A DNA stretch of 35,868 nucleotides, taken from Jimgerdemannia flammicorona (taxonomy: Eukaryota). The translations under genes were made by a program, and so were the position numbers. Shown piece by piece: positions 1-27,265 of this stretch (position 1 is its first letter; every line of letters starts with the position of its first letter). Under the pieces are notes generated by a model. It searched no databases. It was given only the letters and a program-made list of their open reading frames with translations, and was not told the DNA's origin. The stretch covers positions 1-35,868 of the forward strand of contig RBNJ01000236.1 in the NCBI GenBank assembly GCA_003990765.1. The letters are read 5' to 3'.

Positions 1-554
1 GCTGGTGCGCTTAGAGCGTTAATGTGATTCGTCAGCTCGTCAACCCGATCGGCGTATTTACGGATCGTCTCCTTGGACTTCATCCATAGGCTGAATAGTT
101 GCGATTTCAAGTGGAATCTGTTCGAGGTGGAGTCCTTTTGGTGTAGATCGCGTAAGATCTCCCAGGCTTCGTTTGCTGTTGTAGCGTAGATGACGTGTTT
201 CAGTTGTGCGTTAGATAGTGTGAATGTAATCTCGCGTAAGGCTCTCTCGTCGTTAGTGACATTGTATCCCATAATCTGTGCTTGCGGCTTCCAGTAGTCC
301 GCTAAGCCACATTCGATAAGGAGATTCTTCATATGATAGGCCCAGATTGCGTAATCTTTCCCGTCGAAGACAGGGATGGACCTCTTGGACGTTTGCACTA
401 TCATAATAGCCGCTGGGGCTAGAATTGACGTCGTCGTGATGGTCGTAGTAGTTGCCGCTGGGGCTGTTCCGGTACCCGTTCCGGTACCCGTTCCGGCACC
501 CATTCCGGTACCCGTTTCGGCACCCGCCGAGGGACTCCCTGGCGTATTCGACAT
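1..554 (-). CDS. Ty1/copia Gag(-Pol) N-terminus, open and running off the left edge of the window
   Basis: Manual translation from ATG at 554: MSNTPGSPSAGAETGTGMGAGTGTGTGTG...IPVFDGKDYAIWAYHMKNLL...QLKHVIYATTANEAWEILRDLHQKDSTSNRFHLKSQLFSLWMKSKETIRKYADRVDELTNHINAL. This is the copia Gag pattern (F.G.dY..W, then A.eaW..L). No stops in 184 codons and CpGs retained. Missing from the ORF track because there is no stop in the window. Confidence 0.92.
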   Translation of the reverse strand, partial: MSNTPGSPSAGAETGTGMGAGTGTGTGTGTAPAATTTTITTTSILAPAAIMIVQTSKRSIPVFDGKDYAIWAYHMKNLLIECGLADYWKPQAQIMGYNVTNDERALREITFTLSNAQLKHVIYATTANEAWEILRDLHQKDSTSNRFHLKSQLFSLWMKSKETIRKYADRVDELTNHINALSAP

Positions 555-616
555 CTCTTTTGTGCGTAGAGTAGTGTAGCGTATATTAAAGAGGTGTTTT
601 GGTTAGCCACTAATCG

Positions 617-628
617 GGGCTCATAACC
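617..628 (-). other. Primer-binding site of the copia element (half-tRNA-iMet type)
   Basis: The minus strand reads ...TTTCACA-ATA-GGTTATGAGCCC, matching the GGTTATG(A/G)GCCC PBS of copia-type elements, 3 nt after the LTR end. Confidence 0.85.
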
Positions 629-631
629 TAT

Positions 632-794
632 TGTGAAATACTGGAATTTGAGGGATAAAGGAGCAATCTTTATTGATATGCGCGAAGCGCGTATTTACGT
701 GTTGATGACGTTTCTACTGATGACGTCCTCACACGTGAGCTGCGCCACCTTCACGTGAGCTACATACCGAGTTGATTAGCTAGAAATCTCAACA
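632..794 (-). mobile_element. 5' LTR of the Ty1/copia element (163 bp)
   Basis: The minus strand runs TGTTGAGAT...TATTTCACA (TG..CA ends), contains AATAAA, and is directly followed by the PBS and gag. Composition switches abruptly to AT-rich DNA at 795. Confidence 0.85.
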
Positions 795-3030
795 TGGAGT
801 TTATATAGTAGATTTTTACTTAGTAGTAGAGTAAAATTCAAATTAAAGTAGTGATATTGATCTGATTCAATTTACTTCTTAGCTATCATTTATACTTCAG
901 AGTTAGTAATATAGTTTAAGAATTTCTGGTTAATTATAGTAATTAATTCTGGAGTTCTTATACAGCTAGTGTGACTTTGAGCAAGCATATTGAACCTATA
1001 ATAGCTATAGATATTTCTAAGGCCTGAGTGGTAGTTTCTAAATATATATCTTATAAAGGTCTCAATAGGTCTGATTTACAAACTGTTGATTAAGATCTTG
1101 ATCAGTGTTTTTCTAATTCCACTTAGTCCTAATAACTATAGTAAGATAGATCTTAGTTTATAGATCAATTTTTAAATTATCTATAGTTGGTTTTGAGTAT
1201 TCTCTTATCTAAGATTAGATCTAGATTCAACTTACAGAAGGGTCTTAATACTATCTTAGTTTAAAAATTCTACTACTACTAAGTTATAATAATACTTATT
1301 TCAATCTCTCTTATATTTTTAGATAACTTGGATAATAAGATATTACTTAGGAACTTGATATATACATATATATATCAAGAAGTTTTTCAATTGTTCTTTT
1401 ACTTAGTAATATTTACTAAGATTGAGGAAGTACTGTTTCTTTATATATAGCAAAAATAAGATATTACTCTTCTTTAGTCATAGTTATAAGAAACTATTCT
1501 TGTTGTATATAGACTAAATTTCTTATAATTTAGATTTAAAAGAGTTTTCTTTTTAGATTTTTTAGTTCTAACAGAAGTTAGCTAGACTTCTGGAGTTTAG
1601 TTAGAAATACTAGAGTAATTTAGAGTTCATTATTAAGAAACTCAGAGAAGTATATATATGGAGAAAAATTTATACTTAACTAAGAGCTGGTTTATTTTAA
1701 ATATAATTACTAAGAATATTTATATATATTAACTAAGTAATATTTTGCTATTTATATATAACTAATTTGATATATAACTGCTTAAGTTATTTATTTATAA
1801 AATGAATGATCTTTGTATTTAGAATAATTACTTTGAGTTTATAATTAAGATAAATATTTTTGATAATATATTAATTAAGTAATATAGTTGCTATAGTACT
1901 AATATAGACTCTAGTATTCAGAAGTTTTGATATTTCATTTTCTATATTTATCTTATATATTTATCTCATTTATCTTATTTATATATTACTTATTTATAAT
2001 ATTATTACTAAATTATATAATTGCTATTTATAGTATATTATAGATATAATTCTTATTATAGAAGATAGGAATTTCTACTAACTATCTAAAAGTTATATTG
2101 ATTTTTTGCTAATTGAGATCCTTGAAGATCTTATACTTGAAGATCTTATTCTTTCACAGCTTCTTCTCTTTCTCTCCTTTACTAGCAGGAGTATTATCTT
2201 AGATAATATCTTTAACTGCTTATTCAAATTCTATATCTTAATCTATTTCTTTAGCTATAGTTTTACTTTTTATAGATACTTCTGTTTGTCCTTCTAGAGA
2301 CTGTTCCACTGAGTTCTTCTTGAGTCTTTCTAGTAGTCAAGTTTTCTAGATATTCTTCTTAGAGATAAGGATATGATAAGCTTTCTATTCTTGTTCTTTC
2401 TCAGAATTTCCAATTTTTTCAAAAGTGATGATATTGATCTATTTATAGTTTTTAATAGTATTGCTTAGTTGGATCTTTTATTTGGTCTCACTTATGCATT
2501 TATAGAGTAGTAGCCTTCTTCTCTATAAGTATAGTAGATTTCTCTCTTCTTATCTATAGTAATAGCAAACTTTTAAACTAGGTAATAGTCTTTTCTTCTA
2601 ATTTTCTTTCAGATAAGCAGTCATTTTAGCAAACTTCTTAGTAAGTTTCTTCATAAGATTACAGTTTCTCTATTACTCTGTAACCTTTAGTTGAGATATA
2701 TTTTCATTAATTATAGTTATAAAGATTATACTAATTATCTTGAGTACTTCAATTTTGACTCCAGTAACTCTCTCTATTATATAGTCTTAGAGATATTCTA
2801 ACTATCTAATATTACTAAGCATAAGTCACCTTCTATACTAAGTTTAGAACTATTGATATTAATTAGATTGCTATAACTATTTCTGAGTAAATTTCTTTTA
2901 TAAAGGTTACTTTAGCTACTTGATCTCTGATAGTATCAGTATAATTAGCCAAGATTATCTAATAGTAGATTTAGATATAGAAGATATTTAGATCTTTATT
3001 TATTTCTTAATAAATAGTATTAAGTTAATT
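795..3030. repeat. Heavily decayed, AT-rich, CpG-free repeat relics of unknown family
   Basis: Essentially no CG dinucleotides, abundant TA, no intact ORF. 1300-1730 aligns by eye with 10355-10780. Confidence 0.6.
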
Positions 3031-3210
3031 CTTGAGAGTAATACTCTCAATAAATTAAAAAAAAATTAAATTTAATTTGAACTCTATTTTTTGAAATATA
3101 ATAACTTAATAAAAATATGTCCAAATTTAATAATCTTTAGCTTGTTAGATTCCTCTATATAAGAGAAATTTAATAAGCTAAAGATCATTAAATTTAGATA
3201 TGTATGTTTT

Positions 3211-3663
3211 TGTAACAATTTCACAATCATATTTAGTCTTAGTATATTTTTGTATCTTTTAATTAGTCTTTTCTTGTTATTTCTTAAACATTCTACTATG
3301 TTCTACTACCTTCTACTTGCTTAGAAACCTTCTCTTAGTACCTAGATACTACTAGAACATTCTTGTCTTTTTTTGGTATCCAGTATCTTGTCTTAGCTAG
3401 TTATGGAACCTTTTGGAATATTATAGAATAGTATTAGTCAGCTTTGCCAAGAAATTATTTCTTGATATTTCTTTTTCTTTCCAAGATCCTTCTGGATCTT
3501 TCTTTTAGATTATGTATAAATATCTTTATTCTCTATCTGAATAAAACTCAGAATATTTTCTCTCAGAAATTCTTCAACCTTTAAGTATCTCTTTGAACTA
3601 CTTTAGGCTAACTAGAACTTCTAAATTTAGCTACTTTCTCTTAAAGAAACTAGAACTGTTACA
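3211..3663 (+). repeat. Gypsy 5' LTR
   Basis: TGTAACA...TGTTACA terminal inverted repeats, internal TATAAA and AATAAA, collinear with 9498-9961. Confidence 0.93.
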
Positions 3664-4729
3664 CTTGGTAACAGTGATATCATTATATCTTACCTTATTA
3701 AGAAACCTTACACAAATTCAGAAACCAGTCACAACTAGTTATATGAATTCAAAATGAGCCATAAAGAGTCAGTCTATCAGCCAGATCTCTCTGGAGAAGT
3801 AGAAGAACCACAAGCCAGCATAGAGGACATAATTAATACTATGGCCCACTAAATCCAAGAACTTCAAGCACAACTAGAACAGCAGAAAACAAGAACTGTG
3901 AGTACATCATATTCTACTATAGCACTAGTCAGTTTTAAGCCACTTAAGCCAGATATCTTCAACAGTCATCAAGGAGGACTATCTACAGATGTATGGACCT
4001 TTCAGTTAGACCAATACTTCAAGCTCACAAGAATGGAAGAAGATATGTAAGTTCAATTTATCACTATACTTCTCCAAGGAAATGCAGCTATCTGGTAATA
4101 TAATCATACATATCATAGTTATATCTATATATTTATATATATGAATCAGAGACTAGAAAGCCTTCAAAAGAGCTCTCTACAAGTAGTTCAAGTCTGCTAA
4201 TACTACTAAGCTAGCTAGAGACAAGCTAGTGAACATCAAGCAACTCAAGTCTATACAAAGTTATAATATACAATTCTTGTCAATCCTACTCAAACTACTA
4301 GTAATATCTGAGGATGAAATGATAGACCACTATGTCTAAGATCTGAAGAGAAATACACAAGTCAAGATTGAGCTAGAAGAGCTCAAAAACCTTAATGAAG
4401 CCATGAGAATTACCAATAGGTTTGATATCATTATCTTTGGTAACTGCTTTGAACCAGAATACTACCAAAAGAACTACTTTGAGAACCACCACAAGAACTA
4501 ACCAAGGACAGTTGGCCTGGTATCAATGGACTTAGACACTATGAATAAAAAGAACACCAAGCTCACTTCTAAAGAAAAAGACCACCTGAAGAAATCTGGA
4601 GCCTGTTTCTTCTATCATCAAATAGAATATATTGCAACCAAATATCCTAAAAAGACTAGTAAACTCTCAAGACCAGTCACTGTATTGTCCAAGGACACCT
4701 CTGTCAACTCCACTATCAGTCTATCTGAG

Positions 4730-5070
4730 CTTAAGATCAAGAAGCTTTATCTGAAGGCCCAGGCCTCTCAATATCAAACAGAAGAAGCTATTAGTCTTGA
4801 CCTATACTCAGTCAAACAAGTCACTATTCCAGCCAAGGGCCAAACTCTAGTGCCTACTGAAATTGTAGTCTAATATCCTAAAGGACATTATGTCAGAATT
4901 GTATTATAATCAGGACTTAGTATCAAACATAATTTAGATATAGATACTGATATCATTGACTCAGACTTTTGAGGATAAGTTCAAGTTCTGCTTATCAACC
5001 AGAAGGATTAAGACTACATAGTCAAGGAAGGAGACCAAGTTATGTAAATGATCCTAGAAAAAGCTAGTCA
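4730..5070 (+). pseudogene. dUTPase domain inside the gypsy polyprotein
   Basis: In frame with the Gag knuckle and protease: LKIKKL..EAISLDLYS..VTIPAKGQTLVPTEI..PKGHYVRIVL*SGLSIKHNLDIDTDIIDSDF*G*VQVLLIN..YIVKEGDQVM*MILEK. These are trimeric dUTPase motifs I-IV once C>T/G>A changes are reversed. Confidence 0.9.
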
Positions 5071-6533
5071 ACTCAAGATTACAGAAGTTCAAGTACTCAT
5101 AGACAGCAGAGCTGCAGAGAACTTTATCAATCAGAACATCATTGAAAGTCTCAAGATCCTTACCAAGCCTGTACCCAAGAATAATAGTATAGTCACTACA
5201 GATACATAGTACTCTGTACCCTATTAAGTCAATTGCTACCAAACTACTCATCAAGATCTAGAAATATTGGGAATAAGTAGACTTCAAGATTACACCACTA
5301 GGAGATCATGATCTGATCTTAGGAAAATCCTGGCTTATGAAATACAACCCAGACATTAATTGGTATAAGAATGAAGTCACCCTACTCTAAGATAGAGCCA
5401 ATATCACTATCAAGACAGACAAGACTACAAGCAAGACCCAGATTGCAATACTGTCAGCTATATAGTATAAGAGAGTACTCAAGAAGATAATATATACCTT
5501 TATTATAATAGTCTATCTCAAGAAACAAGACAAGAGACTATCAGTTAATGAAAGTATTAAGTTACTACATATAAGAAGAATTCAAAGATGTCTTTTCAGA
5601 TAAGCTACCTGGTCTACTGTCTATATAAGAAGTTGATCATAAAATTAAACTGACCCCAGGAACTGTACTACCCAAGAAATACATGTACTATATGTCATCA
5701 CTTGAAATTGAAGCAGTCAAGAAGAAACTAAAAGAACTACTTATATAAGGAGCCATCCAGCCAATCAAATCTCCTTATAGCTCATTAGTCTTATTTGTCA
5801 AGAAGAAGGATAGTACCCTGCAAATATGCATAGACTATCATATACTCAATAAACTCACTGTCAAGAACTGCTATTCACTACTCTTAATTGATCAAATCTT
5901 TGATACTCTCAAGAATACCAAGTACTTCACCAAGTTGGACTTTATGTCAGAATACCACCAGATTCAAATCAAGCTAGAAGATATTCCTAAGACTATATTC
6001 ATAACCCCCTTTAGGCTCTATGAATTCTTGGTTTTAGCATTTGGTCTCACTAATATATCTGCCATATTCCAGACCCTAATGAATAAGATATTCAAGGACT
6101 AACTATTTATTTTTCTATTGGCATATCTTGAGGACATTCTGATCTTTAGTGCAACTAAAGAAGAATACCTCAAATACATTTGAATAGTCCTGGAGATTCT
6201 GTGAAAATACAAGCTTTATACTAAGCTCAAGAAGTGCAAATTCTTCAAAGAACAAGTCAAATATCTTGGCCACATTGTCTCTACACAAGGAATTCAAGTA
6301 GACCCATATAAGATAGAAGCAATTGAAGAATAGCCCATTCTGTTGAATCTCACAAAACTCCAATCCTTCCTTAGTCTAGCTGGCTACTACTGCTACTTTG
6401 TCAAAAACTTCTCTGGCATTGTTGAGCTACTGACTAATCTCATGAGGAAGGCACTGCACTCAGACCACTATGTACTCTATACCTAGAACCTCTTCTGTCA
6501 ATAAGCCTTTCAAGAACTCAAGAACCACCTGAC

Positions 6534-6957
6534 TAGTGCTTCCAAATGAGTCGAATCAATTTGAATCGAATCGAATTGAGGGTTAAATGAGTCAAATCGA
6601 ATTGGGGATTTTTCAATTCAAATCAATTTGAATCAAATCAAAAGTCAAATCGAATTGAGGGTCTAATTTGAACCCTAATTTTCAAAATGCAATAACTCAG
6701 CGTAAACTCATCCAAATCTAACGTACTTTAGCTTGTTAGAATCACATTAATATGGTTAATCTAACAAGCTAAAATACATCAAATTTGGATGAGGTTTCGT
6801 CGAGTTATTACATTTTGAAAATTAAGGTTCAAATCGAACTTCGAATCGAATTGGACCTTTGATTTGATTTGAATTGAATCGAATTGGACCCTTGATTCGA
6901 TTGAATTGAATTGAGTTTGGGCCAAATTCGATTCGATTCGATTCATTGGGAGCACTA
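6534..6957. mobile_element. hAT-type foldback MITE copy 2 (best preserved), inserted between RT and RNase H
   Basis: TIRs TAGTGCTTCCAAATGA and TCATTGGGAGCACTA, 8-bp TSD CACCTGAC/TACCTGAC, subterminal (GAATC/GAATT)n arrays, central long inverted repeat. Confidence 0.9.
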
Positions 6958-7257
6958 TACCTGACCCATGCTTCAGTCTTATATAATACAGATCAAGGCC
7001 TAAAATTTATAGTTACTACTAATGTATCAAATTTTACCATTGAAGCAGTCCTGTTATAAGATGATGGCAAAGGACATTGTCCTATTGCTTTTGAGTTCCA
7101 TAAGTTGGTCCTAGCTAAATAAAAGCTAGTCACTTATGAGAAGAAACTACTGGTAATAATGATATACTAGACCACCAGTGATGCTATCTAGAAGATATTG
7201 AGTTTGATGTCATTACTAACTATAAATCCCTCAAGTATATCAATACCCAACCTACTC

Positions 7258-7595
7258 TAGTGCTCCCAATGAATTAAATTGAATTGAATTAGACCTAAAT
7301 TTGATTTTATTCAAAAACTTTAAATTGAGGTCCAATTTGATTTGAAGTCTGATTCAAACTCTATTTTTAGAAATTTAATAACTTGATAAATATATATCTA
7401 AAGATCATTGAATTTAGATGTATATTTGTCGAGTTATTACATTTCTAAAAATAGGGTTTGAATTGGACTCTCAATTTGATTTGAATTCAATTTGATTCAA
7501 ACTCAATTTAAATTGAAAAATTCCCAATTCAATTCAATTCAAATGACCCCCAATTTGATTCAATTTAAATTGATTCAATTTATTTAGAAGCACTA
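7258..7595. mobile_element. hAT-type MITE copy 3 (opposite orientation to copy 2), inserted in RNase H
   Basis: Starts TAGTGCTCCCAATGAATT and ends TATTTAGAAGCACTA, with the same internal motifs. No recognisable 8-bp TSD. Confidence 0.85.
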
Positions 7596-9497
7596 GTTAC
7601 ATCTACAAGCCAAGTAGAGCCTCAAGCTTCAAACCTTTAACCTGATGATTATCTATAAGCCTGGCAAGACACTTGTAGTATCAGATATATTATCAAGATA
7701 CCCTGACCTCACCATAATCATACAAGTTACCTTGGTATCAGAATTTCTAGACCAAATCAGACAAGCTTATAAAGAAGACATAGTTGCTACTAGAGTTTTC
7801 TTGAATGAGCTCAAGGATACATATACTGTCAAAAACAATCTGATCTATTATCAAGATCAAGTCTATCTACCTGAAAACATAAACCTATACTATAATATTT
7901 TATAAGAATACTATAACTTTCCTCTTGCTAGTTATCTGGAAATCAAGAAGACTGTCAAGAACATTTAATACCACTACTATTAGCTAAGTATAATCAAGGA
8001 AATCAAGAACTATATTGTCAGCTATAATCTATATTAGTGTAACAAGTCTACCAATCAAGCATTAGCCAGTTTACTTCAACTACAGCTAATTTCCACTAAG
8101 AAATTTGAGCAAGTTACTATGGACTTTGTAACTCAACTATCATAAACTCAATCTGGTACTGATGTTATCATTATATTCATTGACTGCCTGATCAAGACTA
8201 TGGTTGCTGAACCAACTACTACTAATGCTACTGTACCCAAGATTACAAGAATCTTCTCCAAGTCTATCTTCTATCACTATGGCCTACCATGAGTAATTAT
8301 CAATGATTGTGATTCCAAGTTTACCAGTCACTTATGACAACCTCTCTTCAAGACCCTGGGAACTCAATTGACTATATCCACTACCTTTTACCTATAAACT
8401 AATGGACAAACCAAGCACATGAATAGAACTCTAGAACAAATGCTTAGAAACTATGTTTCTTATGAGCAAGATGATTGGGACCACTACCTGACTTATATAG
8501 AGTTTGTATATAATAATATCATCCAATTATCTACTGGTCTTTCTTCTTTCTAGTTACTCTATGGTCAAGATTCTGAGACCCCTACAAGTCTATTCTCTTT
8601 TAAAAAAAGTAGTCAAATACAAGTCTCTACTATCAAAAACCTTACAGATAAAATAGACAAACTACTCAAGATTGCTACTATAAATCTTCAGAAGGCTCAA
8701 CAGTATTAAGTCAAGTATGCTGATAAGAAATACTATGATGTTACTTATACTGTTGGAGATCAAGTCCTACTGTTTATCAAGAATCTCAAGATATAATCTC
8801 AAGTTAACCACCCTTTGAACAAGTTCTAACCCAAGTATATTGAACCTTTTGAGATCACTAAATAAGTCTCTACATCCTCCTACTGTCTTAAGCTATCTGA
8901 AACCATGAAAGTATATCCAGTCTTTCATGTATCATATCTTAAGATCTGAAACTAGTTACTGCTCTACCCTGGTTGAATTCCTAAGCCTTTCTTCTCTATA
9001 ATTATTAAAGACTATATTGAGTACAAAGCTGAGAAAATTCTTGACAAATGAATCCACTATTGTCATCCTAAATACCTAGTCAAGTAGATGAGTTACTCTG
9101 AATATAATACTACCTGGGAACTACTGATCAATCTCAAGAACTCTCAAGATCTAGTTCAAGACTTCAAGGTAAAATATATTATCTAATATCTGTAGTAATT
9201 TCTTTGGATTATTAATGACTTATGGCAATAATCAGTATCTTATATATTGGAAGTTTACTTTGGGACCCTGGAACTAGCAGAACATTTAATGAATAAGAAG
9301 TCTACCAAAATGAAGCTACTAGCTGGATTTGAACTCCTCTCAGTTAGTTAGTCTGGTAATAGGCCCTCTGCTCTATATGAGGATGGCCAATCTCCATCAA
9401 TATACTAATATAAGTTTGAGAAATTTTGATTAAGTATTATCTAGTCTTATGTTACCTAAGAACTCAACAAGAATATTAGTTCTTAAGGAGGGAGAGA

Positions 9498-9961
9498 TGT
9501 AACAATTTTACAGTTATATTTAATCTTTAGTATATTTTTACATCTTTTAGTTAGTCTTTTCTTATTATTTCTTAAATATTCTACTATGTTTCACTATCTT
9601 TTACTTGCTTAGAAACCTTCTCTTGGCACTCAGACACTACTAGAACATTCTTGTCTTTCCTTAGTACTCAGTATCTTATCTTAACTAGTCATGGAACCTT
9701 TTGGAACATTGTAGAATAGTATTAGTTTGCTTTGTTGAGAATACATTTCTTAGTATTTCTCTTTCTTTTCAAGATCCTTCCAGATCTTTCTTCAGATCAT
9801 ATATAAATATCCTTATTCTCTGCCTGAATAAAGCTCAGAATATTTTCTCCCAGAAATCCTTTAAGAATACTTGAACTTTTAAGTATCTCTTTAAGCTACT
9901 TTAGGTCAACTAAAACTTCCAGATTTAGCTGCTTCCTCTTAAAGAAACTAGAACTATTATA
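9498..9961 (+). repeat. Gypsy 3' LTR
   Basis: Starts TGTAACA immediately after the PPT and ends TATTATA (mutated TGTTACA), followed by TSD GTTTT. Confidence 0.92.
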
Positions 9962-10783
9962 GTTTTTATCAAGTTATTATATTTTGAAAAATAGAGTTCA
10001 AATTAGACCCTCAATTTGATTCAAATTTAATTTAATTTAATTTAAATTGATTTAATTTATTTAAGAGTACTACTTGAGAGTTTACTTGATTTTATCTATA
10101 TAGTAAGTAGTTTACAGTTACTTTCTGTACTGTCAATATTGTAGCATCATTATTTCCAACATAATTCACAGCTGTGAATATAGCTCTTATAGGTCCTTAA
10201 AGACTGAATAGCATTAGAGTTACTTATTATACTACTAATAGAGTTCTTATAGTAGTATATTACTTGAAATTATTAAAAAAAGATAATGATTGATTTATTA
10301 AAAATATATCTATGAAATACTGGTAGCCTCATATCCATCTTGTCTGGATGTCTTGTATAATAATCTATCTCTTATTCTTAAATAATCAGGGTATTGTAGA
10401 GAAATTACTTAGAGACTTAGTATATAAGTATATCAAGAAGCCTTCAGTATGAGAAAGTACTCACTTAAAAGTAGTTATAACAGTAATACCCTTTCTTATA
10501 AAGAACTTATTCTTTACTATGCACAGACTGGATTCACCTTGGAATTCAGATTCAATAAGGGGTTTTCCTTAAGTCTTTGAGATTTATATACTGGTCTCAG
10601 TTCTGGTAGAAGTTAGCTAAGCTTCTGAAGTTTAGTCAGAAATATTAGAGCCACTCAGGTACCACTACTAAGACTCAGGAGAATGTGTATGTGTGGAGGG
10701 GAAACTTGATTATTGTATCAAGGACTGAACTAAAACTGCTTTATTTTAGATAGAAATGTTTAGGATATTTATATAAGTTGGTT

Positions 10784-11037
10784 TGTGATTTCTAACTAAG
10801 TATGAGCAACTAATTTGGTCCTATGGATGACCTTTGTGATCAGGACCTTTATACTATGGATTGTTAGGTAATGATTAGTTGCTGCGGCGATTGCTGCGGT
10901 GGGATAAGCTGAATATCGTTTTATCTGCATCGTTCGCGTCGTATGCCGCTCGATTGTGACGTCATCACCGTGACGTTGCCGGGTCACGTGATCGCTCGTC
11001 GCGGCTTTGTCGCGTCCCATCTGTTCGTTCTATTACA
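10784..11037 (-). mobile_element. Candidate young solo LTR (CpG-rich island within decayed DNA)
   Basis: The minus strand runs TGTAATAG...AAATCACA with a TATA-like GTATAAAG and dense CpG in 10880-11030. No perfect adjacent TSD (TTGGTT flanks it with a 2-nt offset). Confidence 0.5.
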
Positions 11038-11802
11038 TCTTGGTTCAATTTGAGTGTGGGTTTGGGTGGTAGCAGTTGTTCATTATTCAGCTTAAAAATG
11101 AGGGATTTATCTTGAATTACCAGCCAATATTGACAGAAGTGTAGCAGATTTCTTTATCTTGAACACTTAATTTTCTTTGACTCCTCAGTGTCCTTAAATA
11201 CAGGAGTGGGTGAGTTCAAAGTGTATCTGTCCACTCTCTTTGCTTGAACTATTTCAATCTGAGATTTATTCACTCTAGATACTAAGGATATTATATAAGT
11301 TTTCTAGCTATATAGTAACTAAGTTAAGACTTCTTTTTCTGTAAGTTATTTTATAAAGTTAAGATATCAGTATATCTGTACAATTTATATGATTGTGAGT
11401 TTTGTATAGCTGTGCAAATTATATAACAGAGAGATTGAGTGACTGCTTAACAATATATTATACTATAATGAAAATCAAATTTAGGTACTATGATCAAATA
11501 TCTATTTTCTGATTATTGTTTCTAATTTAGATCAACTATTATACTACTTAGATAGTAGTCTTAATAGATCTAAATTAAGTAGTAAAATATATAGAACAAA
11601 TTTACTAAAACTATATAAATCTTAATTATCAATAAAAGAAATCTAAGTAATTATTTTTTAGTTATTTATATTAACTTAATTTAACTAAGTAAGAGCTACT
11701 AATATTTTATTTAAGATATATATAATAAAAAGATCTTTAATTTTATATAAGACTAAAAATTATAGTATTAAAATAGTTTTTTAAAAAAATAGATATATTG
11801 AT

Positions 11803-12112
11803 TAGTATTTATAATAAATTAAATTAAATTGAATTTGACTTTAATTTAATTTAAGTTTTAATTTGAATCTTAATAAAAATATGTCTAAATTTGACAAATT
11901 TTAGCTCATTAGATTTACCTTATCTAGAAAATCTAGTATAATAAAGATTATATATTTTGATTGAGTTATTGTATTTCAAAGTTTGACTCTTATATAAGTT
12001 CAAATTGAGGGACTATATGTCTATAAAAAAAAAAATAAAATAAAAAAAATAAGTTCAAATTAAATTTGAATTAAAAAATTCTCAATTTTGTTCAATTTAT
12101 TTAAGAGCACTA
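11803..12112. mobile_element. hAT-type MITE copy 4 (strongly decayed)
   Basis: Starts TAGTATTTATAAT and ends TTAAGAGCACTA; 8-bp TSD ATATTGAT/ATATTTAT (7/8 match); retains TTAGCTCATTAGAT and GAGTTATTGTATTTCAAA internal motifs. Confidence 0.75.
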
Positions 12113-13017
12113 ATATTTATAAGTTTAAAGTAAATAAATATATTAATAAATTTAAATACAATAATAATAATAATTAAAATATATATATATTTATTAAATA
12201 ATAGTAATAAGACAATAATAATGAGATAACTTCTCTAAAAATAATAATAATAGTAATTATAAAGTAAAAAGAGTACTAAATAATAAAAAGATAATTAAGA
12301 GAAAAATTATTATAAAATACTAAAAACAGAGAATAATAATAATGAAGAAACAGTAGAGATAAGGATAGAGAAAATAACTATAATAGTTGAAATAAATACT
12401 AAAGATAAGAAAAATATATAAAACTAAGTATTAAATTACTCATATATCAAATTACTAATCTATCATTATATACTACATCACACTGTATTTAAAAGTCCTC
12501 TAGAAGTATTACAGAGATTGTCCAATAAGTCTAAAAAGTCAAAAGGCCTGGTATATACTACTGCCTACATCATAAATTTTTTTCGCCTGCTTTATTCAAT
12601 ACCCTGCCTCCACTACTTAATAACATTGCTAGTTTCGTCCACCTCTCACTTGTCACTAAGCTATTAAATTTTCACAAGACATCTGTTATGTCTATGCCGT
12701 CTATTTATCGTTCTTATCCGGCCACATAAGCACCGATTTTGTTGCGAAGTGAATCATGCATTTAGTATTGGCAGTTTCCATCGGCGTGCGGGCCCGAATT
12801 TCGTGTCATCTTTCAGAAGTGTGTGGAGTACTAGCACCTAAGTGACAGTAGAAATAGCAAAACCACAAAACGAGATGCTTTTACAGATTTATGAGACACG
12901 AAATATGCAAGAAATACAGATGTCGAGACGTCAAATCGTATCCTACAGCCTCCAGATCTTCGTCGTCCCCAAACACTACACAGGTATCCTTCCCCGCGCT
13001 TTCCATCCATCCACACT

Positions 13018-16000
13018 TCAATAATCATATTCGTCCACATACCTCCTCTTATCCGCATTCGCTGCATCCAACGGATCGACCTCCCCGCTCCCCTGCCTGA
13101 CTAGCGTATGCCCTACGTCCCCCGCCACAGCCAGGATATCCGTCCCGCTCCCGCCGACGATACCAAGGATGGGGTCTCCACGGGCGGCGTGGTTGCCGAA
13201 GCTGGACCTCCTGTTGGTCGCAGAGCTAGTATTGGTACTATGGGCCCGTGGGATATGCGGGCGACCCTCGGCGATATTTCCCGTGCTTGCGGCCATGCGG
13301 TCGGGCGGCGGGGAACGTAAGCCGAAGAGTCCTTCCTTATTGCTGGAGGGGCGATGAGAGGCCCCTTCCTCGGTACCTAGTATCCAGCTGTACTTGTTGG
13401 CAGAGATGGCAGACTTTGGGGGCGAGGCCAGGGACGGGTCGGATAGGATATCGTCGATGGTGACGGGTGGCTTAGTCGGGGTCCGCGGGGAGGAGGACGA
13501 TGAAGGCGACGTGGGGAGCGATTTGGTGGATCTTGTTGATTCCTTGACAGCGGGCGCTGGGTTTTCCTGGAAGCTTGGGGTCGTCGTCGGCTCCATCACA
13601 TCGGCTCGTTCAACCTTATCAAGTATGCTTTCGTCCAGCCCGCCTCGCATGCCACCGTTCCCGGTCCCGACCAGCGCGACCTCGTCGCTCTCCACAAACT
13701 CCCACTCCCGCTCTTTCTCTCTCTCCGGAGGCGGCTGCGTCTGGTACTGTGTCTGCGTCTGGTGCTGTGTCTGCGTCTGGTGCTGTGTCTGCGTCTGGAG
13801 CTGTGTCTGCGTCTGGAGCTGTGTCTGCGTCTGGTGCTGTGTCTGCGGCTGCACCCGACGATGGCTCGCGGCCTCAGATACGATTTGGTCCATGATATCC
13901 TGGTCGAAATCGACGGTCTTCCCTTGCAGCACATCTCGCACATGCTTGAGCCCCACGAGCGCGAGGACGAGTGCCGCTTCCTTGACGGTATCAGAGGGCG
14001 ACGGAGCGGGTGCCGGCACGACGGGCTGCTCCGCGTCCGACGTGGGGGATGGGATGCTGACACCAGCCCCGAACACTTCACGCTCGAAGACCTCGACACA
14101 CTTCTCGACCAGCACGCCCATCTGGCGGTTCACGTCGCGCAGCCTCGCCACATCTTGGTGGAAGGTGGCCGGGTCCGAGAATGGCGGGGGCGGTATCCTC
14201 GATGAAGGTGAGTGAGGCGTTGGGGCTTGGGCGAGGGGTGGTGGCGGCGGAAGATTGGTCGATGTGATGGAAAGGCGGTCGAAACCTGAGGGGAACTCGG
14301 AGCGAATCTTCTGCGGTCCGGATTGGGTACCGTCGACTGAGGGACGGCCGAGCACGTTCTCGCCGAGGATACTGACGTTTTTCTACGAATGTCAAATTCG
14401 TAATTGATAAAATGAGCCCTCAAGTCACACTCTGTGTATTGGTTGTACCCATCTCATTTCACCACTTGGCCGGCCCATATGAACCACTCATTCCCTCCAA
14501 AAAAAAAAAAAAAAAAAAACACCACAAACATACCTTGACCTCATCCATGACTCCCGCAATGGCTTTATTAATCTCTCTAACCTGCGGGCTCTTCATGACT
14601 TCCTTAGTCATCTTCGCGAAACCCTCCGCAGCTGGTTTCGTCATTCTTGCGAGGTTGTCTGTGCCAGCCTCAATGGACGGGTGGTGCTGGTGATTGTACT
14701 CTCCGGCGTGGCGTGAGGGACTGGGTGGGGGAGCGCCGTGCTCACGGGGGACGCGGCCTGCGCGCACGTCGTTCTGGCGCATAATCTGGACCCCGCCTTC
14801 CTGCGAGAGGTGGTCGCGCAGGTAGACGGCTTGCTCGATCAGCGTGTGCGGGTTGACGTGCGCCGTTGGGTAGTGCATCAGTAGTCCCAGGCAGCTCGAG
14901 TAGTCGTCTTGGAGAACTGTGGATATGGTGGGGATGTCGTGAGTCAGGGATTTTCGGAGAGTTCATGCCGCCGAGAAACATCATACGTGAACAAGCATTC
15001 AAAGGACTCACGGTCGTCACGGATCCCGAACAGCATGGACAGGCACACGTAGTCGACGATTTTGAGCGTCGCGTCCTCGGCGAACATACCGTCCCATAGC
15101 TTGAGCAGGCTATCCATATCGAACTCGCGACCGAACAAGAGACGAAGCCAACGGCTGAAGAGAGGAGTGAAGATTGTACAACAATGTTTAGGTACCAGTG
15201 ACGAATTTCATGTAGTCATGTGGACGCTTGGAAGTCCTTCGTGAATATGGTGACCATGCCATGCCACAAAATTACCAGATACACCAAAACAAGCATGCCC
15301 CTATTCTACACCCCACAATACTTCCCGCCCTGCCCAAAGCATCATACAAGAATGAAAAATTGCCACAGCTCCCAAGATTAAACACATCCACCGCACCCAA
15401 CATTTCAACTCACATCCCGTAAAGCTGCGGCTCGATCCCCAGCCGTTCCAGATGTCCATAGAGTTGCGGGTCAACCGTGCGCAGGAATTCGTGGTGGATC
15501 CTGTGGCATTCCATCACGACGGGGTTAAGTTTCGCGGCCTGTACAAAGGGGAATAGGAATTCGGGTAAGGGAGTGACGGCAGACAATTTAAGTGTGACAA
15601 AGAAAAGGAAGGTTGTGAGGGCAGTTAAAAGGACAAAAGTGGTGATGAAGCTCTCCACTTACCTCGGTCGGCGTGGGCTCCCGCGAGGCGAACATACGGG
15701 ACTCGTCCGCCACGTTCGGCTGTATCAAATTGAATCGAGTGTCCAAAAAAAAAAGTGAGAACACGGTCCAGCAAACATTCCACAATCTTTTCCTCCCCCC
15801 TCCCCCCCTTCTACCACATCACGCCCACGCTTCCAAACCCAACACAGCCTCCATCATGGAGGCTACCGCGTAAAATAAGACGTATACCCTTGCCTGCTTC
15901 CGCTGTCTGGAGGAGTTGAACACCTCGTCGTTGAACTCGTACCATGTCTTCGCGGACTTCATGACCTGCGTGAAGAGCGAGAAGGCGTCATGCTCGACGT

Positions 16001-17461
16001 GGGCACGGTCGAGCGTCTGGAGGAGGACATCGGTTGTGGGGCTAAGAACACCGAACGAAATTAAATGCAACGGGGTTCAGATTGCGTCCAAAAGGTTTGT
16101 GCTCGTGAAACAATACATCAAAAAAAAAAAGGAAGTGGGACCCACTCGAGATCCGTCGCGCCTTCTACCAACTCAACGCTATCCTGATCCACGACCAACA
16201 AGACGGGAGCAAGCAGCTCGTGCATGCCCTGTCGATAGGATACGTCCTGGTTCATTTTGCAGTAGATGAAGAGAATGTCAACCATACGCTGCTGGACGCG
16301 AGAATCGCGGAAGTAGTCGATGTCGGGGAAGCTACAGTTGAGAAGGAAGGATAGGTAAGTTAGAGGAAGGTTGATTATGAGCGAGAAACTGGGCTAAAAT
16401 AAGGAGGAAACAAATGGCGATTACGACGCACGTGCGCTCAACGTCCTGGCGGATGACTTTGCGGATTTCAGAGTCGGCGAAGTACTGTTGCCACGGGTTC
16501 TTAGGACATCAAACGAAGGGGAAAAGAGTTAGGAAGCATCTTCGTGAGGTGTGTGAGGTGGATAGACTGATTAACATCTCCGTACATACACACACCTCAC
16601 TCAGTAAACCAATGATCACAACACGACGCACAACCGTCCTCCAATATCACAAGCACCTCCAATACTATTATCCATTCCGATTACCATATGACCTTTCGGC
16701 TCCCCTCTTCCGACCAAAAAACCATAACTCTCTTCCCCCCTACCAACGGAAACGTGGCAGCAACGTACATCGTCATTTGACGCCAGAGGGTTGTTCACAC
16801 TCAGATCGCCGCCTCCCTTGGCCATCTGCTCGGTCGGGTTCGTAATGTACTTGTACACCAGGTTACTGTAGTGCTGGCGCTCCTTCTGCAGAATGAGAGG
16901 CCAGGTTGAAGTTTCGAGGCTCGGGAAGTAGGTGAGATAGACCTGAACGAATGGGGAGAATAGTCGGTGGGGGGTGATATAAAAAGAAAAAAGGAATTTC
17001 GTGATCAGGGAGAGATGGGGAAACACCGTGTTGTACGGGGGGATTTGATGTGGAGGACGATTTGCGCTTCCTTTCGGTTTTCCGGATTCTTTGTTCTTCG
17101 GTCATAGAGCCCGCAAATACCCAGCTCCGCCAATCTCGACTTTGGTGAATACTTTCAAGTTCATGTCTGTGTCTTGGGCCCCACTCAATCTCCCAGGAGC
17201 TTACCTTCCAACAGACTGAGCGTAGCGTGGTCCGGCAAATGTTTGTGGCAACGGCCTTTTGCCTCAGACTGGTCAGCGACAGGAGCGGGTCGTTGAAGAT
17301 GAGGTCCCATTTTTGCCTAAGGTGGTTCGTATGAGTAGAAGAGGATCACGAGGGTGAGGATCAAGTGGAACATGGGGGAGCGAGAGCGGGGGGGGGGGGG
17401 TCGGAATGCGAGAATGTAATGCGTCTGCGAGCGGATTGTACCTTGCCTCGTGTAGGTCCAT
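13018..17461 (-). CDS. TBC1D5: TBC-domain Rab GTPase-activating protein, TBC1D5-like, 11 exons, about 928 aa
   Basis: Exons 17461-17442, 17316-17205, 16942-16769, 16499-16432, 16331-16146, 16041-15888, 15719-15663, 15538-15414, 15154-15012, 14916-14534, 14382-13018. All introns are GT-AG and the exons total 2787 nt in frame. Motifs LRSVCWKVYL, NPW..YF, IRQDVERTFP (R finger), YRQGMHELLAP (Q finger), YGIRWLRLLFGREF, LWD. Confidence 0.88.
13737..13848 (-). repeat. Coding 18-bp tandem repeat (QTQHQT/QTQLQT, about 6 units) in the RabGAP C-terminus
   Basis: Repeated TGCGTCTGG(T/A)GCTGTGTC units on the plus strand. Confidence 0.9.
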
Positions 17462-17609
17462 TGTTATTTCAGAAATGAGAGAATAATTCGGGTTCGGCAA
17501 CTCTCTCACCCATGACTGGGATAGTGACTGGCTGTCACCCAAATTCACCTGACGTCACCACGCAGAACAACAAGGCACGCGCGTGCTCCTCTCGACCCAT
17601 CCACCTGCC
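17462..17609. promoter_or_regulatory. Very short divergent promoter region between TBC1D5-like and MIM2, with a CRE palindrome
   Basis: 148 bp between the two ATGs; TGACGTCA at 17550-17557; palindrome GCACGCGCGTGC at 17575-17586. Confidence 0.6.
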
Positions 17610-18159
17610 ATGTCACAACCCACATATCTCTCGGAGGACACCCTCTACGCTCGCCTCCAGCAGACCACACATCATCGCCCGCTCCCCCATCCGGACCGCC
17701 ACTACAGCGACGACGAGGACCATTCCGAGGACGAGGACGAACTCGACTCGCTCCACTCCTACGGCCTCGTCGACGACACCGACGACACCGATGAGTACGA
17801 CGTCGAGGAGGAGTGGGAGGAAAACAAGCGCCAGATTCAGCTGATATTTTCCATGGTCATATTCCCCTACATGGGCAAGTTCCTCGGGAGGAAGTTTTCG
17901 TTTTACCGTGAGTTGACCGATGTTCCTTTCTTACTTTCTTTTTATGTGGAGAAGAGACATTGTGCAATATGGCGCGAGCCATTGTTCGGGAGCATACTTT
18001 TATTCCGATTGAGTAAATGTCTCAAATTGGCAAAGGGGTACTCATATAGTGTGTTACGACAAACGTCGCTGACCTAACCTCTTGCACTCTTGACTCATAG
18101 TATGGGGCAAAATGCTGAACTTTTGGTACGGCGCCTCCACCCCTCGGATAGGGGTATGA
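17610..18159 (+). CDS. MIM2: Mitochondrial import protein Mim2 (MIM complex subunit), 2 exons, about 118 aa
   Basis: Exons 17610-17907 and 18101-18159 (GTGAGT...CTAAC...CATAG intron). Acidic N-terminus followed by EEEWEENKRQIQLIFSMVIFPYMGKFLGRKFSFYLW, matching the Mim2 W......P..GK.LGRK signature. Confidence 0.8.
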
Positions 18160-18328
18160 CATCGGCCCCATAGATCTCGACGGGTTGCAGTGAACTCTTT
18201 GTTTCGTCGGCCAGAGTGGTGATTGTACTGCTGTGTTTGGCAGGTTGGAAATATCTATGTAATTTCTGATTGTGAAATATCATTCGGAATCCAGATGTTT
18301 CAATATTTCTTCTGATGGTTGCTGCTGG

Positions 18329-18331
<3 letters not shown>

Positions 18332-18411
<80 letters not shown>
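18332..18411 (+). repeat. Poly(T) homopolymer, 80 nt
   Basis: Uninterrupted T run. Confidence 0.95.
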
Positions 18412-18413
<2 letters not shown>

Positions 18414-20825
18414 GACTTTCAAATGCCCTTTAGCTTAATGATTCTTCATGTACTTATCTCTTTTGATTCACCTGCCTCCATTATCATGTATGTATGTGCA
18501 ATATCAAACACATTACATCTATAGACTCCTTTTCTCTCCAGAATATCCGTTAGACTTTAATAAAGCCTGTGAGGGATCTTATTGCATATGTGGAAGCACG
18601 TAATGTGACCTTTTCTTGAAGCACATTGAAGCCGGTGCCATACCTAACTCGGCCTTCCGCCGTCAAGGAAAAAAAAAAAAAAAAAGATCAGCTCGAAGAG
18701 TCGTCGGACTCGAGAAGCGTATGGATTACCTGCGCAAACGACTGAAAGACACATATCGGCTTTCTCAATGTAGTCATCCTTACAAAGTTTAGTTCTGAAT
18801 ATCCTGTGCCAAACAAACCACGACAGTGGAAAGCATTTATGCAGCACGCGCAGCATACGATGATTTTGACTATATATACGTACATTTTACTGGTAATACC
18901 ACATCTACAATTACAACCGTGATATTACCTCCACAGCGCTTACGTACATGTCCTCCAAATTTACAGTCGAAGTAAATGTGTGTCTTTGCCTAAAAAAAAA
19001 AAAGATTCGTGACACCAGCTTATTCAAGTTTACAAATGAATATGCAAAATTCGCCCCTCAGCGCCGAGCCAGCCGTTGCGATACGGGGCAGCAGATCGTG
19101 CGAGCTCCCTGACACTGAGGGTCGTATGTTACTTTTGCAAATGTTACATACCTTTATACCGACGCTACGGCGACCCGCATTCGCGAATGAGTAAGGCACC
19201 ATGGACAGAATAAAATATTACTGTTGATGACATATCTTGTTGGTCAGCTTCACGATGTTGTTAATTTTGTGCTTCTTTGCAGTCATGTCTGGATGACAGA
19301 GAAGACGATGGTGAGCTCCAGGATGACGCGGAGGGGGTCATCCTGGTAGGAGATAGCGCAGGACGCTCACGGAGCCAAGGATTTTACTTTTTTGGGTCAT
19401 GTAATTATATACTGGATGAGGGATGATGCTTATTTACACGTGACTTGCCCTACAATACATTCCTATAATGGAAGAGGACCACAATATTGAAATGTACTTG
19501 GAAGACGCCAATTTATAAATAGCTGTTTTGACCCTAGTGGCGTGCGGTTATGGGATCCACATATTTCACCACCAACCAATTGCCCAGCTCTTTACCGCCG
19601 CAACCACGCCTGTCTTTTTTAATTATTGCCGGTTGATGGCAGGATAGGTGGCGGACGTTGATGGCCTTATGTTGGATTGTCGTTTTATTTTGAAACGATC
19701 GGCTCTGCTTCGGGTAGATGACGAATGCACAAGCTACTATCTTTCCATTACTAAGTTCAACCAACCGGATGGGTGCTAAAAATAAAATATTATAGATACA
19801 TGGTTTGAACCCAGTAACAAATTTCGATTCCTTCCCGATATTAACAATAAAGCCATTTATTTGGATCACAGGCATCGAAAGTATAACGATTCGTGCCATC
19901 AAGAGATGTCCCTGGAACCTCCACACTGATTCTCTACTCCTGACACCCAGCTTAACGCCGACAATGTCTAGCTCAATTTGAACCACGTAGGGCCTCACCC
20001 AAGGCCTGACCGAAGAGAACATTCAACCCTTCCCTTCGACCTCCAACGGCAGAGCTCGTATTCCTTTGGGAAAATAGTTTGGCGTGTCTGTCTTCCGTGA
20101 TCTTAAGACGGGGCGACGTTAGGGACGGGGACCCTGACGCTGAGGCAAAACGTGCTTGTCAACTTGGACCATAATCCCTACCAAGAGCCTCATCCAAGCG
20201 TCGCGCAAGCTGGAGAACAGCATGCGCGGTGGACGGAAGTATATTTGGGTTGGAAGGCGAAGTCAATACGATCGTCAAACATGCGTGAGCCATCGCAAGA
20301 TAAATACACATTCTTTATGCTGTCCCAATCTTTATTTTATCAAGTTTCGACCGTTCTTTGTGGGTGATGCCTTCCTTCAACCGAGGGACATATTTTTCCT
20401 GAACTGATTCTGGAGTTGCGTATATTTATTGCTTTTTGTGCCGAATGCTATTTACACGAGATTTATTCATTCAATCATCCCTCGACCTCACACCGCTAAA
20501 AAGAGAGAATGAAGAGATATGACGGAAAACGATACTTACGCGTTCAGCGCACGACGTTGCGTCTCCGTCTTCCCACCGCTCCAAACGGTACATTATTGTT
20601 TGAACGCAATATTCTTTGAAGGGACTACAGAATGCATATACGGCATGTTTATTATCCCGTTTACTATAGCATTAAAGTTTTTTTTTTTTTTTTTTTTCCA
20701 TGCATTCAGCGAGCTTTCTTCGCCAAGGGTAGCATGCCAACGAAGAACTTCATTCCGTTGACCTTGATCAAAGATTCCTTATCATGAAATCCCTCCTTGT
20801 TATCAGAAACAGGAACGTAAATGTT

Positions 20826-23800: not shown

Positions 23801-24575
23801 CCGAGATCACACGATGGTGCTCCTTATCCTTGTCCCGTACGACGACCTTGCACATCGCCGACGCGACGCCCGGAAGGAAACTCGCCAACACATCTGCATC
23901 CCGCAGGTTGTCCGTCAGGAGCTGAGACAATGATCCCAGTGCCGCCAGCCGCAGCTCGAGCAGCCGTTCGGTCATCACCACGTCGAGTAGGACGGCGACG
24001 CAGTGGCCGACAGAAGGGCGGAATACCTCAGCCCTTAATGCATCCAACAAATCCAACCGTTTCGCGCTCTCCTCTTCGGAATCGGGGATCTTGCCCTCAC
24101 AGTGTGCGCGAGGCAGAATCGCGGACAAGCATCTCACCGCGACAAGCGTCGTCTCCTCCGACGGCCTCGGCAGCTTCGGGTCATTCGGTCGGACAAGCGG
24201 GCCGCCGGCGGATAGGGTGAACAGGATAAATAATTGCTTGAAGATCTCGGGTTCGAGGGTTCTGTTCCACCCGCACTCCTCTAGCAAAAAAAGCAGACAT
24301 CGTAACCACGTCTCGGCGACGGTGTCGGGAAGTGGTTCTTGCGGTTGACGGCGTTTGTAGAGCTCGAGGAGGGGAAAGAGGACGTAGTCGACGAGGGCTT
24401 TGGTGAATATGGTAGAGGGCTCAGATATGGCTCGGAGAGTGTCGAGGAGGGCATTCAGAGCGTCTCGGATGGGTCGTTGATTGGGTCGAGATATGTTTGG
24501 GAAGGAGAGTAGTGGCACGCAGACGGGCTTGAGTTTCAAGAAGACATCCTGGCGTCTCTGGTCCAGTTCAGCCAT
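20826..24575 (-). CDS. TTI1: TEL2-interacting protein 1 (TTT complex, HEAT/ARM repeats), single exon, 1249 aa
   Basis: N-terminal F.KLKPVCVPL and LVDYVLFPL, LASFLPGVAS, NVDYVVN, and LVHKIWP..VRRL are characteristic Tti1 motifs; length fits. Confidence 0.88.
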   Translation of the reverse strand: MAELDQRRQDVFLKLKPVCVPLLSFPNISRPNQRPIRDALNALLDTLRAISEPSTIFTKALVDYVLFPLLELYKRRQPQEPLPDTVAETWLRCLLFLLEECGWNRTLEPEIFKQLFILFTLSAGGPLVRPNDPKLPRPSEETTLVAVRCLSAILPRAHCEGKIPDSEEESAKRLDLLDALRAEVFRPSVGHCVAVLLDVVMTERLLELRLAALGSLSQLLTDNLRDADVLASFLPGVASAMCKVVVRDKDKEHHRVISAAVGLLGDVVVAVMNDEANAEFVTRATKLSDLRNFVGRRLPSAPETKDSTTDEGSETSTALVTSSSTPPKIFTATRTRHWLAATQTQLKRLLTQTLTARDHPDWSTRMHFVDFSYTLLLQCALTLELCAPNLIETLVLHLDDDYAPVVARCREHLLALSRHPEFAASLVPILKSRLDDWMFSLARHLTSADEAAKCSALSLIAGLLALLGAEARSVLETSLEKVAGGWLRGLEMDDVNVKVERAAVGRFAELEYGRGSVGTADGDGDGSQGGAGERSRIPRYPTKRFGYLVSDRAVEGASRLFRTLGRVGDAGFLVEHFMRYLRSGQGGIVETGSYQPQAAWVVNEILLGAGGFGLTVPAEDPSSSLETSNDTPFASQSQNTNSERQVRSLAKQILRELISLEILTAPTSVLDKEAVIALHSQFGPSASTPLTLTTTRPSTDIIPTPSLNATILTICHMLECVATTSLILGPAFKLELIDALYPLLDQLGSQNARISFTASITLDAVARACGYWPSRPRATPTQALVLGNVDYVVNTVSDRLARVPLDPRAPRVMTAVVRVGGGSVIEYMGDSVQEIFDALDAYHMNGWMCAELCGVLREVVRVVENEDILQEKEDGANREEGGAKEGLQEQQKGGVSQEISGFVARYKGIDFDGDGYQRESRVETKAMNEIGQYFLEQQQKKDKVKELDEEDLEKLASEAEREQNRPPSSRRDSDTDRKIPPTRNQQTVLDILHKTIHFLTAPSPHLRSQILSLIESALPVLRPRPQDLNPLVHKIWPSVVRRLDDKEHFVILNAVHLVQCVAECCGDFLSRRVVDDLWPRFKVMLRERVREAEAEERRTGITMTAALAANPNAYSVFTRAHRLQRSVLQTLALVAEHVPLKDGNVLEIVTTCAPYLDAMRWHDELQRCGVRLFIALGKGHADAVWLGCCGLVEELWKRKVDDGVVVRDGRMVSEVSETGLKEFAIPQWLRKEDVNGCRENVDLVLASLC

Positions 24576-27164: not shown

Positions 27165-27265
27165 GTAGGAACACTACGCTTTTTGGGAGCGAAGGCTTGT
27201 GCACTGTGAACTGAAAACACCGCAAAGACGCCTTTGCTCTCTATTAAATCAAAAGATATACCAAA

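Follow-up and report, generated by a model that had tools for sequence, protein, structure and literature searches.

Transposon decay in Jimgerdemannia flammicorona begins at CpG, includes CpA and CpC and spares CpT: not canonical RIP but probably a scar of DIM-2-type cytosine methylation

In canonical repeat-induced point mutation (RIP), each round of mutation is heavy and strand-coordinated. CpG hypermutation of transposable elements (TEs) has reportedly been found in 'some lower fungi' as well, to go by the title of a 2017 paper by Clutterbuck. RIP in Neurospora crassa is described as CpA-preferring, premeiotic and heavy per round, and a RID-independent branch of it acts via DIM-2, DIM-5 and HP1 with a very strong CpA preference (bioRxiv 10.1101/115501). 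In Zymoseptoria tritici, Dim2 methylation of TEs is reported at 43-61% in CG, 10-22% in CA, 3-8% in CC and <0.01% in CT, while the dim2-dependent mitotic mutation rate is more than tenfold, falls to >98% on CpA and spares CpG (PMC8016269). Basidiomycota show CpG hypermutation targeting CpG or TpCpG (Horns et al., PMC3318451), and the TEs of Phycomyces blakesleeanus, which has DIM2, carry 5-methylcytosine (5mC) in CG and CHH contexts (PMC11258239). DIM-2-like genes have already been reported in Endogonales, an H3K9 methyltransferase and HP1 are reported as conserved in Mucoromycota, and RID is reported in Pezizomycotina only (PMC9963178). A 2025 screen of 1,239 genomes found RIP-like signatures confined to ascomycetes and scored 30 of 30 Mucoromycota rows, that of J. 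flammicorona included, as 'no_rip' (PMC12543289). Here we describe the nested dead transposons at 795-12540 of a 35,868-nt contig of J. flammicorona (RBNJ01000236.1, assembly GCA_003990765.1; hereafter the window). Their decay is CpG-first, CpA- and CpC-inclusive, CpT-sparing and confined to repeats, which is not canonical RIP. No published description of this spectrum in Endogonales was found in a search that missed most subscription journals, so CpG loss in the lineage may be in print.

The mutation spectrum was determined in three repeat families present in the window: a young copia long terminal repeat (LTR) retrotransposon (1..793, used as the youngest time point), a young palindromic miniature inverted-repeat transposable element (MITE; about 6532-6957) and a dead Ty3/gypsy LTR retrotransposon (3211..9961, analysed over 4100-6530). 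Each family was represented by 30 loci, namely the copy in the window and 29 others, drawn from the best 40 scored of 370 copia, 2,005 MITE and 1,438 gypsy candidates; these sets are biased to copies resembling the window's own, and the copies are not fully independent. Identity of the best 40 scored copies was 95-100% for copia and 87-100% for gypsy. In copia, 1,673 of 2,098 CpG were intact (hazard 0.112), and C>T changes were found at 64 of 2,577 CpA, 29 of 2,669 CpC and 9 of 2,726 CpT sites, over a background of 13/11,569 for T>C and 13/23,737 for transversions. In the young MITE, 492 of 1,110 CpG were intact, with C>T at 37/960 CpA, 17/750 CpC and 4/870 CpT (T>C, 17/7,860; transversions, 31/12,660). 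In gypsy, 40 of 2,039 ex-CpG sites were intact and 366 were doubly changed to TpA, with C>T at 2,391/9,473 CpA, 1,205/5,967 CpC and 458/9,221 CpT (T>C, 195/32,050; transversions, 163/57,760). The window's own gypsy copy now reads T at 119 of 351 CpA, 53 of 221 CpC and 17 of 343 CpT sites.

All three families therefore gave the same ranking of C>T contexts, CpG >> CpA > CpC >> CpT. Scaled to CpG at 100, the ratios of CpG, CpA, CpC and CpT were 100:22:10:3 in copia, 100:10:6:1 in the MITE and 100:15:12:3 in gypsy, where CpG is saturated. CpG, the fastest target in every family, mutated 4-10 times faster than CpA, and CpC at 0.4-0.8 of the rate of CpA; C>T at CpA was 5-9 times as frequent as at CpT and 18-48 times as frequent as T>C. 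With alignment columns as units, CpA > CpT (P = 2e-72) and CpC > CpT (P = 4e-54) were strongly supported, CpA > CpC only modestly (P = 0.009). Relative to transversions, C>T was elevated 165-695 times at CpG and 16-103 times at CpA (46 in copia, 16 in the MITE and 103 in gypsy). Since the latter ratio varies six-fold among families, no single clock applies, and element type or chromatin setting matters. Spill-over from CpG methylation was considered and rejected, as the CpA and CpC rates were independent of the distance to an ex-CpG (rho 0.00 and −0.04).

The excess of transitions was also evident from gypsy copies compared with each other, at 155,897 transitions and 9,476 transversions in an all-against-all alignment. 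Eleven of the 21 elements examined had two LTRs (one of the 11 pairs comes from a locus with three LTR matches), and across 4,930 sites these pairs showed 422 transitions against 36 transversions, the C>T frequencies being 0.261 at CpA, 0.154 at CpC and 0.043 at CpT. As twin LTRs differ from each other, the changes arose after insertion. In the window's own gypsy LTRs, the 13 differences that the first-pass annotation had counted in the first 120 nt, all transitions and in both directions, were recovered, and the two full LTRs differ by 58 transitions and 5 transversions over 442 gap-free sites.

That annotation had further read a preference for CpA from tryptophan codons turned into stops. 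TAG at 6331, 6484, 7615, 7981 and 9085 and TGA at 8335 are indeed present in columns that read TGG in other copies; a second TGG>TGA lies at 8947, and TGG is intact at 8476 and 9115. Across the family, the 224 codons in 9 Trp columns (32 copies at most) included 49 TAG, 36 TGA and 2 TAA (binomial P = 0.19), so the 5:1 skew of TAG over TGA does not hold. At glutamine codons, where TAA stops had also been noted, 326 stops were counted among 1,504 codons in 57 Gln columns of the family. Separately, in the frame used for 6958-7257, TAG stands at column 7168 in 30 of 30 copies and at column 7189 in 28 of 29; probably the window's copy is shifted in frame, or else the family has these stops in common.

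The decay is confined to repeats. As first noted, CpG is virtually absent outside the youngest inserts, and nearby genes are normal: 795-12540 holds 40 CpG (observed/expected, o/e, 0.16) versus 1,591 (o/e 1.08) in the gene block at 12561-34050. Seventeen of the 40 lie in the young MITE, one at 7430 and 22 at 10885-11026. A pair of HSP70 genes elsewhere in the assembly (pieces L199 and L202 against L195; 1,890 nt aligned at 91-92% identity) kept a CpG o/e of 1.03-1.12 on both sides and differed by 67 transitions and 33 transversions, with CpA and CpT at 0.028 each; neither CpT sparing nor repeat-type mutation was seen. The transition/transversion ratio was 2.0 in this pair versus 11.7 in the LTR pairs (Fisher P = 6e-10), although a single pair under coding constraint, unlinked and possibly allelic, is a weak neutral control.

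The cluster of 22 CpG had been taken for a young insert, and this had to be abandoned: in other copies, decayed homologous ends adjoin the same body, so the cluster is the conserved end of an older repeat. This multi-copy LTR-like element ((−) strand) comprises a decayed body at 10361..10860 (0 CpG; homology at 29 other loci; 8 ex-CpG column pairs) and a CpG-retaining end at 10861..11040 (22 CpG, GC 0.52, with CACGTG and TGACGTCA motifs), with CpG-free DNA on both sides. Among 30 copies, 10 keep at least 14 CpG in this island and 20 have 6 or fewer, a frequency inflated by the inclusion of the island in the query, while the adjoining 170 nt have 0-2 CpG in 30 of 30. The bodies of the 10 island-keeping copies are nevertheless decayed, as 61 of 71 scored ex-CpG positions are no longer CpG. 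In the seven best-preserved copies, CpA mismatch was 0.031 in the end versus 0.154 in the body at equal transversions (0.032 and 0.028), and no drop in the end was found for CpC or CpT. On the outer side, three of nine resolved copies abut CpG-rich DNA, and six of nine (the window's included) have at most 4 CpG in the next 450-500 nt. The island is possibly a factor-bound or 6mA-marked stretch kept free of methylation within heterochromatin. Such local protection within a homologous repeat would fit chromatin- or factor-guided methylation better than homology recognition alone. The CACGTG and TGACGTCA motifs of the island (copies L142-L150 and L170) are partly present in the copia LTR too.

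The decay is gradual, affects both strands and accumulates after insertion. The strand ratio was alike across copies (P = 0.87 in the MITE, 0.70 in copia and 0.97 in gypsy), and young copies have lost just 20-56% of their CpG and few other cytosines. Measured against RIP, the repeat-confined C>T/G>A transitions are there, yet CpA is not dominant, a 4-point same-strand excess in the two young families takes the place of heavy strand-coordinated rounds, and a long similar gene duplicate (the HSP70 pair, a single case) was not hit. RIP indices were mixed and not diagnostic: the composite index was −0.02 to 0.15 in gypsy, too low for RIP, and 0.58 at 794-3035, where the product index was 1.27 and the substrate index 0.70.

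Candidate writers were sought by profile searches with PF00145 and TIGR00675, which matched on six contigs of a fragmented assembly (35,354 contigs, the window being contig C236). Three of them, C11271, C8187 and C3657 (loci L041, L037 and L040), each hold a large cytosine methyltransferase gene of several exons, and these exons show motifs I, IV, VI and X. C11271 and C8187 encode DUF7893, BAH and DNA_methylase domains and are, from their sequences, clearly DIM-2-like. The first exon of C11271 matched DUF7893 and, weakly, RFD; its sole PDB matches were 9baq and 9bap, which we take to be Neurospora DIM-2, and its Endogone counterpart scored 269 bits on 9bap versus 152 on DNMT1. The C8187 protein grouped with DIM-2-like proteins of Endogone and Mucorales (100/99), apart from plant MET1, in a tree of 29 rows that held neither fungal DNMT1 nor RID; it sits on a long branch, and one C8187 exon alone scored better on DNMT1. 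C3657 aligned to these DIM-2-like proteins and can be placed, like the other two, in the DIM-2/DNMT1 superfamily at large. The other three contigs hold DNMT2-like pieces (C1744 confirmed, C58 and C2181 by motif), apparently of two genes (C58 plus C2181, and C1744). No RID was found among the PF00145 and TIGR00675 matches, a weak negative as no RID query was used and UNG escaped the same exon-by-exon search. Queries with PF12047 and plant MET1 matched the DIM-2-like loci only, which in so fragmented an assembly is likewise weak evidence against a separate DNMT1, and a search for a 'longer' homologue with the C11271 exon found nothing. A Pre-SET match above cut-off was found on C732.

What is observed is the spectrum, its restriction to repeats, its gradual build-up on both strands once elements had inserted, and the enzyme genes themselves; taken together, these read as what is probably the scar of deaminating DIM-2-type 5mC in heterochromatin. 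Transposons would be packed into heterochromatin, and DIM-2-type methyltransferases, targeted by H3K9me/HP1, would methylate them chiefly at CpG, to a lesser degree at CpA and CpC and hardly at CpT. In the course of many cell generations, single methylcytosines of either strand would then deaminate to thymine, presumably spontaneously, so that each copy would lose CpG first and CpA and CpC later. A DIM-2-class gene with intact motifs is present and the contexts rank as in Dim2 methylation (CG > CA > CC >> CT), the copia ratios being similar to the methylation levels in Z. tritici; mutation that tracks this ranking is as expected if 5mC deaminates in proportion to its level. Of the first-pass reading, a CpA-inclusive, RIP-like hypermutation by a repeat-targeted mutator or broad-context methylation, the involvement of CpA and the transitions were real and broad-context methylation fits best, while a CpA-targeted process of the RIP type is unsupported, CpC being close to CpA and CpG fastest.

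Each described system shares part of this pattern. Like Z. tritici, J. flammicorona shows a TE-restricted effect, a Dim2-class enzyme, the order CG > CA > CC >> CT and >90% C>T; however, in Z. tritici this is the order of methylation while mutation is >98% CpA (PMC8016269), whereas here, in Mucoromycota instead of Ascomycota, mutation itself follows the order and CpG, far from being spared, is fastest. As in N. crassa RIP, there are repeat-confined C>T/G>A changes, AT-rich relics and many nonsense codons, and the DIM-2 branch there needs no RID (bioRxiv 10.1101/115501); unlike RIP, CpG leads, CpC is near CpA, young loads are light and graded, individual copies are unbiased in strand and the gene duplicate at 92% identity escapes. 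Repeat-confined CpG loss is the strongest signal both here and in Basidiomycota (PMC3318451), but a strong second CpA/CpC component continues here after CpG is gone. Phycomyces, also of the Mucoromycota, has LTR elements ahead of DNA transposons in methylation as they are here in mutation load; the parts of that report consulted give a methylation map, with hypermutation or a split of CpA, CpC and CpT not among them (PMC11258239).

Several observations weigh against a passive scar. For a passive process the excess is large: methylated CpG in humans undergoes transitions some 30 times as often as transversions, whereas CpA alone reaches 16-103 here. Prolonged dormancy, in which cells seldom divide, could also shift the balance from replication errors towards deamination. 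Adjacent lost CpGs lay on the same strand more often than in shuffles in copia (0.553 versus 0.509, P = 0.042) and the MITE (0.536 versus 0.497, P = 0.029), with no such clustering in gypsy (0.506 versus 0.519, P = 0.965). Gypsy loads were over-dispersed (59-143 among the 23 copies that are nearly complete; variance 432 against 70) and did not track transversions (rho −0.35, P = 0.057). Old MITE copies read against the young-family reference showed no CpT sparing (CpA 0.374, CpC 0.221, CpT 0.317; 36 alignments of <78% identity, with 10% transversions at T), but this reference is not their ancestor, and the comparison, which cannot be polarised because those copies belong to other subfamilies, was not used. 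A TDG repair gene is present, so loss of T:G repair as the cause was rejected (the search covered TDG, not MBD4). The context match is to a single species, Z. tritici, and in the table of one review DIM-2 is listed with 'all CpN contexts, CpT preference' (PMC13297926). DIM-2 enzymes can also exceed passive marking, since the mutations that depend on Dim2 in Z. tritici and N. crassa centre on CpA and do not scale with methylation.

Because the C>T excess is so large, even at CpA alone, enzymatic readings stay alive. It is conceivable, if rather doubtful, that Endogonales run an active, RID-free transposon mutator in which an expanded DIM-2 family turns the cytosines of CpG, CpA and CpC into thymine. 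If true, genome defence akin to RIP would extend beyond Dikarya, and the lineage would serve as a living model for the origin of RIP from heterochromatic methylation; any enzymatic origin would push DIM-2 mutator activity back before Dikarya. A mitotic mutator as in Z. tritici, though aimed mainly at CpG, is unlikely; here a DIM-2 paralogue, by itself or together with a coupled deaminase, would actively turn C into T in the heterochromatin of vegetatively growing cells. The very high ratios of C>T to transversions, the three divergent methyltransferase paralogues, the slight same-strand clustering in two young families and the more than tenfold dim2-dependent mitotic rate on record (PMC8016269) speak for it, but that precedent is >98% CpA and CpG-sparing where CpG here exceeds CpA 4-10 times, gypsy lacks the clustering, and none of the three genes departs from the usual catalytic motifs.

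A homology-triggered sexual-stage pathway through DIM-2 without RID, with a low dose per cycle over many cycles, is improbable. The RID-independent branch of N. crassa is a precedent (bioRxiv 10.1101/115501), a long series of weak rounds would level out any bias between strands, and the oldest blocks have RIP-like indices (as at 794-3035). That precedent, however, has a very strong CpA preference, RID is reported in Pezizomycotina only, the HSP70 duplicate is spared (a test weakened by coding selection and unlinked position), and one portion of a repeated element is preserved next to a homologous portion that decays. Editing of transposon DNA by an APOBEC/AID-like deaminase, during reverse transcription or later, would give the pure C>T excess with a bias from the 3′ neighbour, yet is very improbable: cDNA editing would be one-stranded and common to both LTRs, whereas both strands are equally affected, twin LTRs diverged after insertion, and a DNA transposon has the same ranking. 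Least credible of all, to the point of being negligible, is CpG methylation alone with ordinary AT-biased neutral decay elsewhere: CpG dominates in all families and CpG hypermutation of lower-fungal TEs is reportedly in print, but the margins of CpA over CpT and T>C in all three families, set against the genic duplicate with its ts/tv of 2.0 and equal CpA and CpT, are those of non-CpG transitions that are context-biased, repeat-confined and far above background, which CpG-only deamination cannot explain, as the first-pass annotation had held.

Whichever reading applies, strong repeat-confined C>T decay beyond CpG occurs in a species scored 'no_rip', and its context order predicts the methylome. 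The test of that screen, in which repeats must differ from all non-coding DNA, may fail in genomes whose non-coding DNA is itself mostly decayed repeat. If the scar is passive, as we favour, it would be a clean case of methyltransferase specificity read from sequence alone.

An early-diverging, non-ascomycete host had been suspected at first and was borne out. The TTI1 open reading frame (ORF) at 20829-24578 ((−) strand) encodes a protein with 100% identity to J. flammicorona, 63% to Endogone and 31% to Ambispora (one further match, 61%), which places the host in Endogonales, Mucoromycota (J. flammicorona or a very close relative) and rules out an ascomycete.

Within the window, the copia copy is the 5′ end of its element ((−) strand; gag at 3-602, Pfam Retrotran_gag_2; LTR at about 632-793), retains 60 CpG and is lodged in a decayed block. 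This block, at 794..3035, is old, heavily decayed repeat DNA of no identified family (GC 0.236, 0 CpG, TpA/ApT 1.27) with patchy homology (1-18 compared loci per 100-nt bin). An old MITE-family copy, recognized by self-alignment to other MITE copies, follows in two parts (3036..3210 and about 9962-10075) that are interrupted by the gypsy element, and a 5-bp duplication, GTTTT, flanks gypsy on both sides. Gypsy ((+) strand; 5′ LTR 3211-3663, polypurine tract 9485-9497, 3′ LTR 9498-9961) has an RVT_1 match, a gag-pol with many in-frame stops and 0 CpG apart from its two MITE inserts. The younger insert has terminal inverted repeats and a TA target duplication and retains 17 of 37 ancestral CpG; the older (7258..7595), of a related subfamily and also with a TA duplication, keeps the one at 7430. 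At about 4740-5090, ahead of the protease region, gypsy carries what we take by eye to be a dUTPase-like stretch, as presumably does another retroelement in locus L039. Locus L192 (contig C231) has three LTR matches, two of them in tandem 19 nt apart.

Old decayed repeat DNA also fills 11041..12560 (GC 0.20, 0 CpG), including a MITE-family relic near 11800-12110, and normal CpG resumes sharply after about 12580. The unaffected gene block at 12561..34050 encodes TTI1, Mim2, F-box, prenyltransferase alpha and Myb proteins. As to insertion sites, 28 of 29 outer flanks of young copia copies (L073-L101) had at most 2 CpG in up to 500 nt, and 30 of 30 flanks of young MITE copies (L043-L071) at most 4 in 600 nt; such near-exclusively CpG-free surroundings suggest that new insertions either target heterochromatin or survive there. 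Some poly-T runs are very long (about 80 nt at 18332-18411; others in loci L152 and L166) and look like assembly artefacts. A second CpG-depleted block (34051-35868; 5 CpG, GC 0.30) begins at a very sharp boundary directly after an F-box/LRR-like ORF at 31986-34040.

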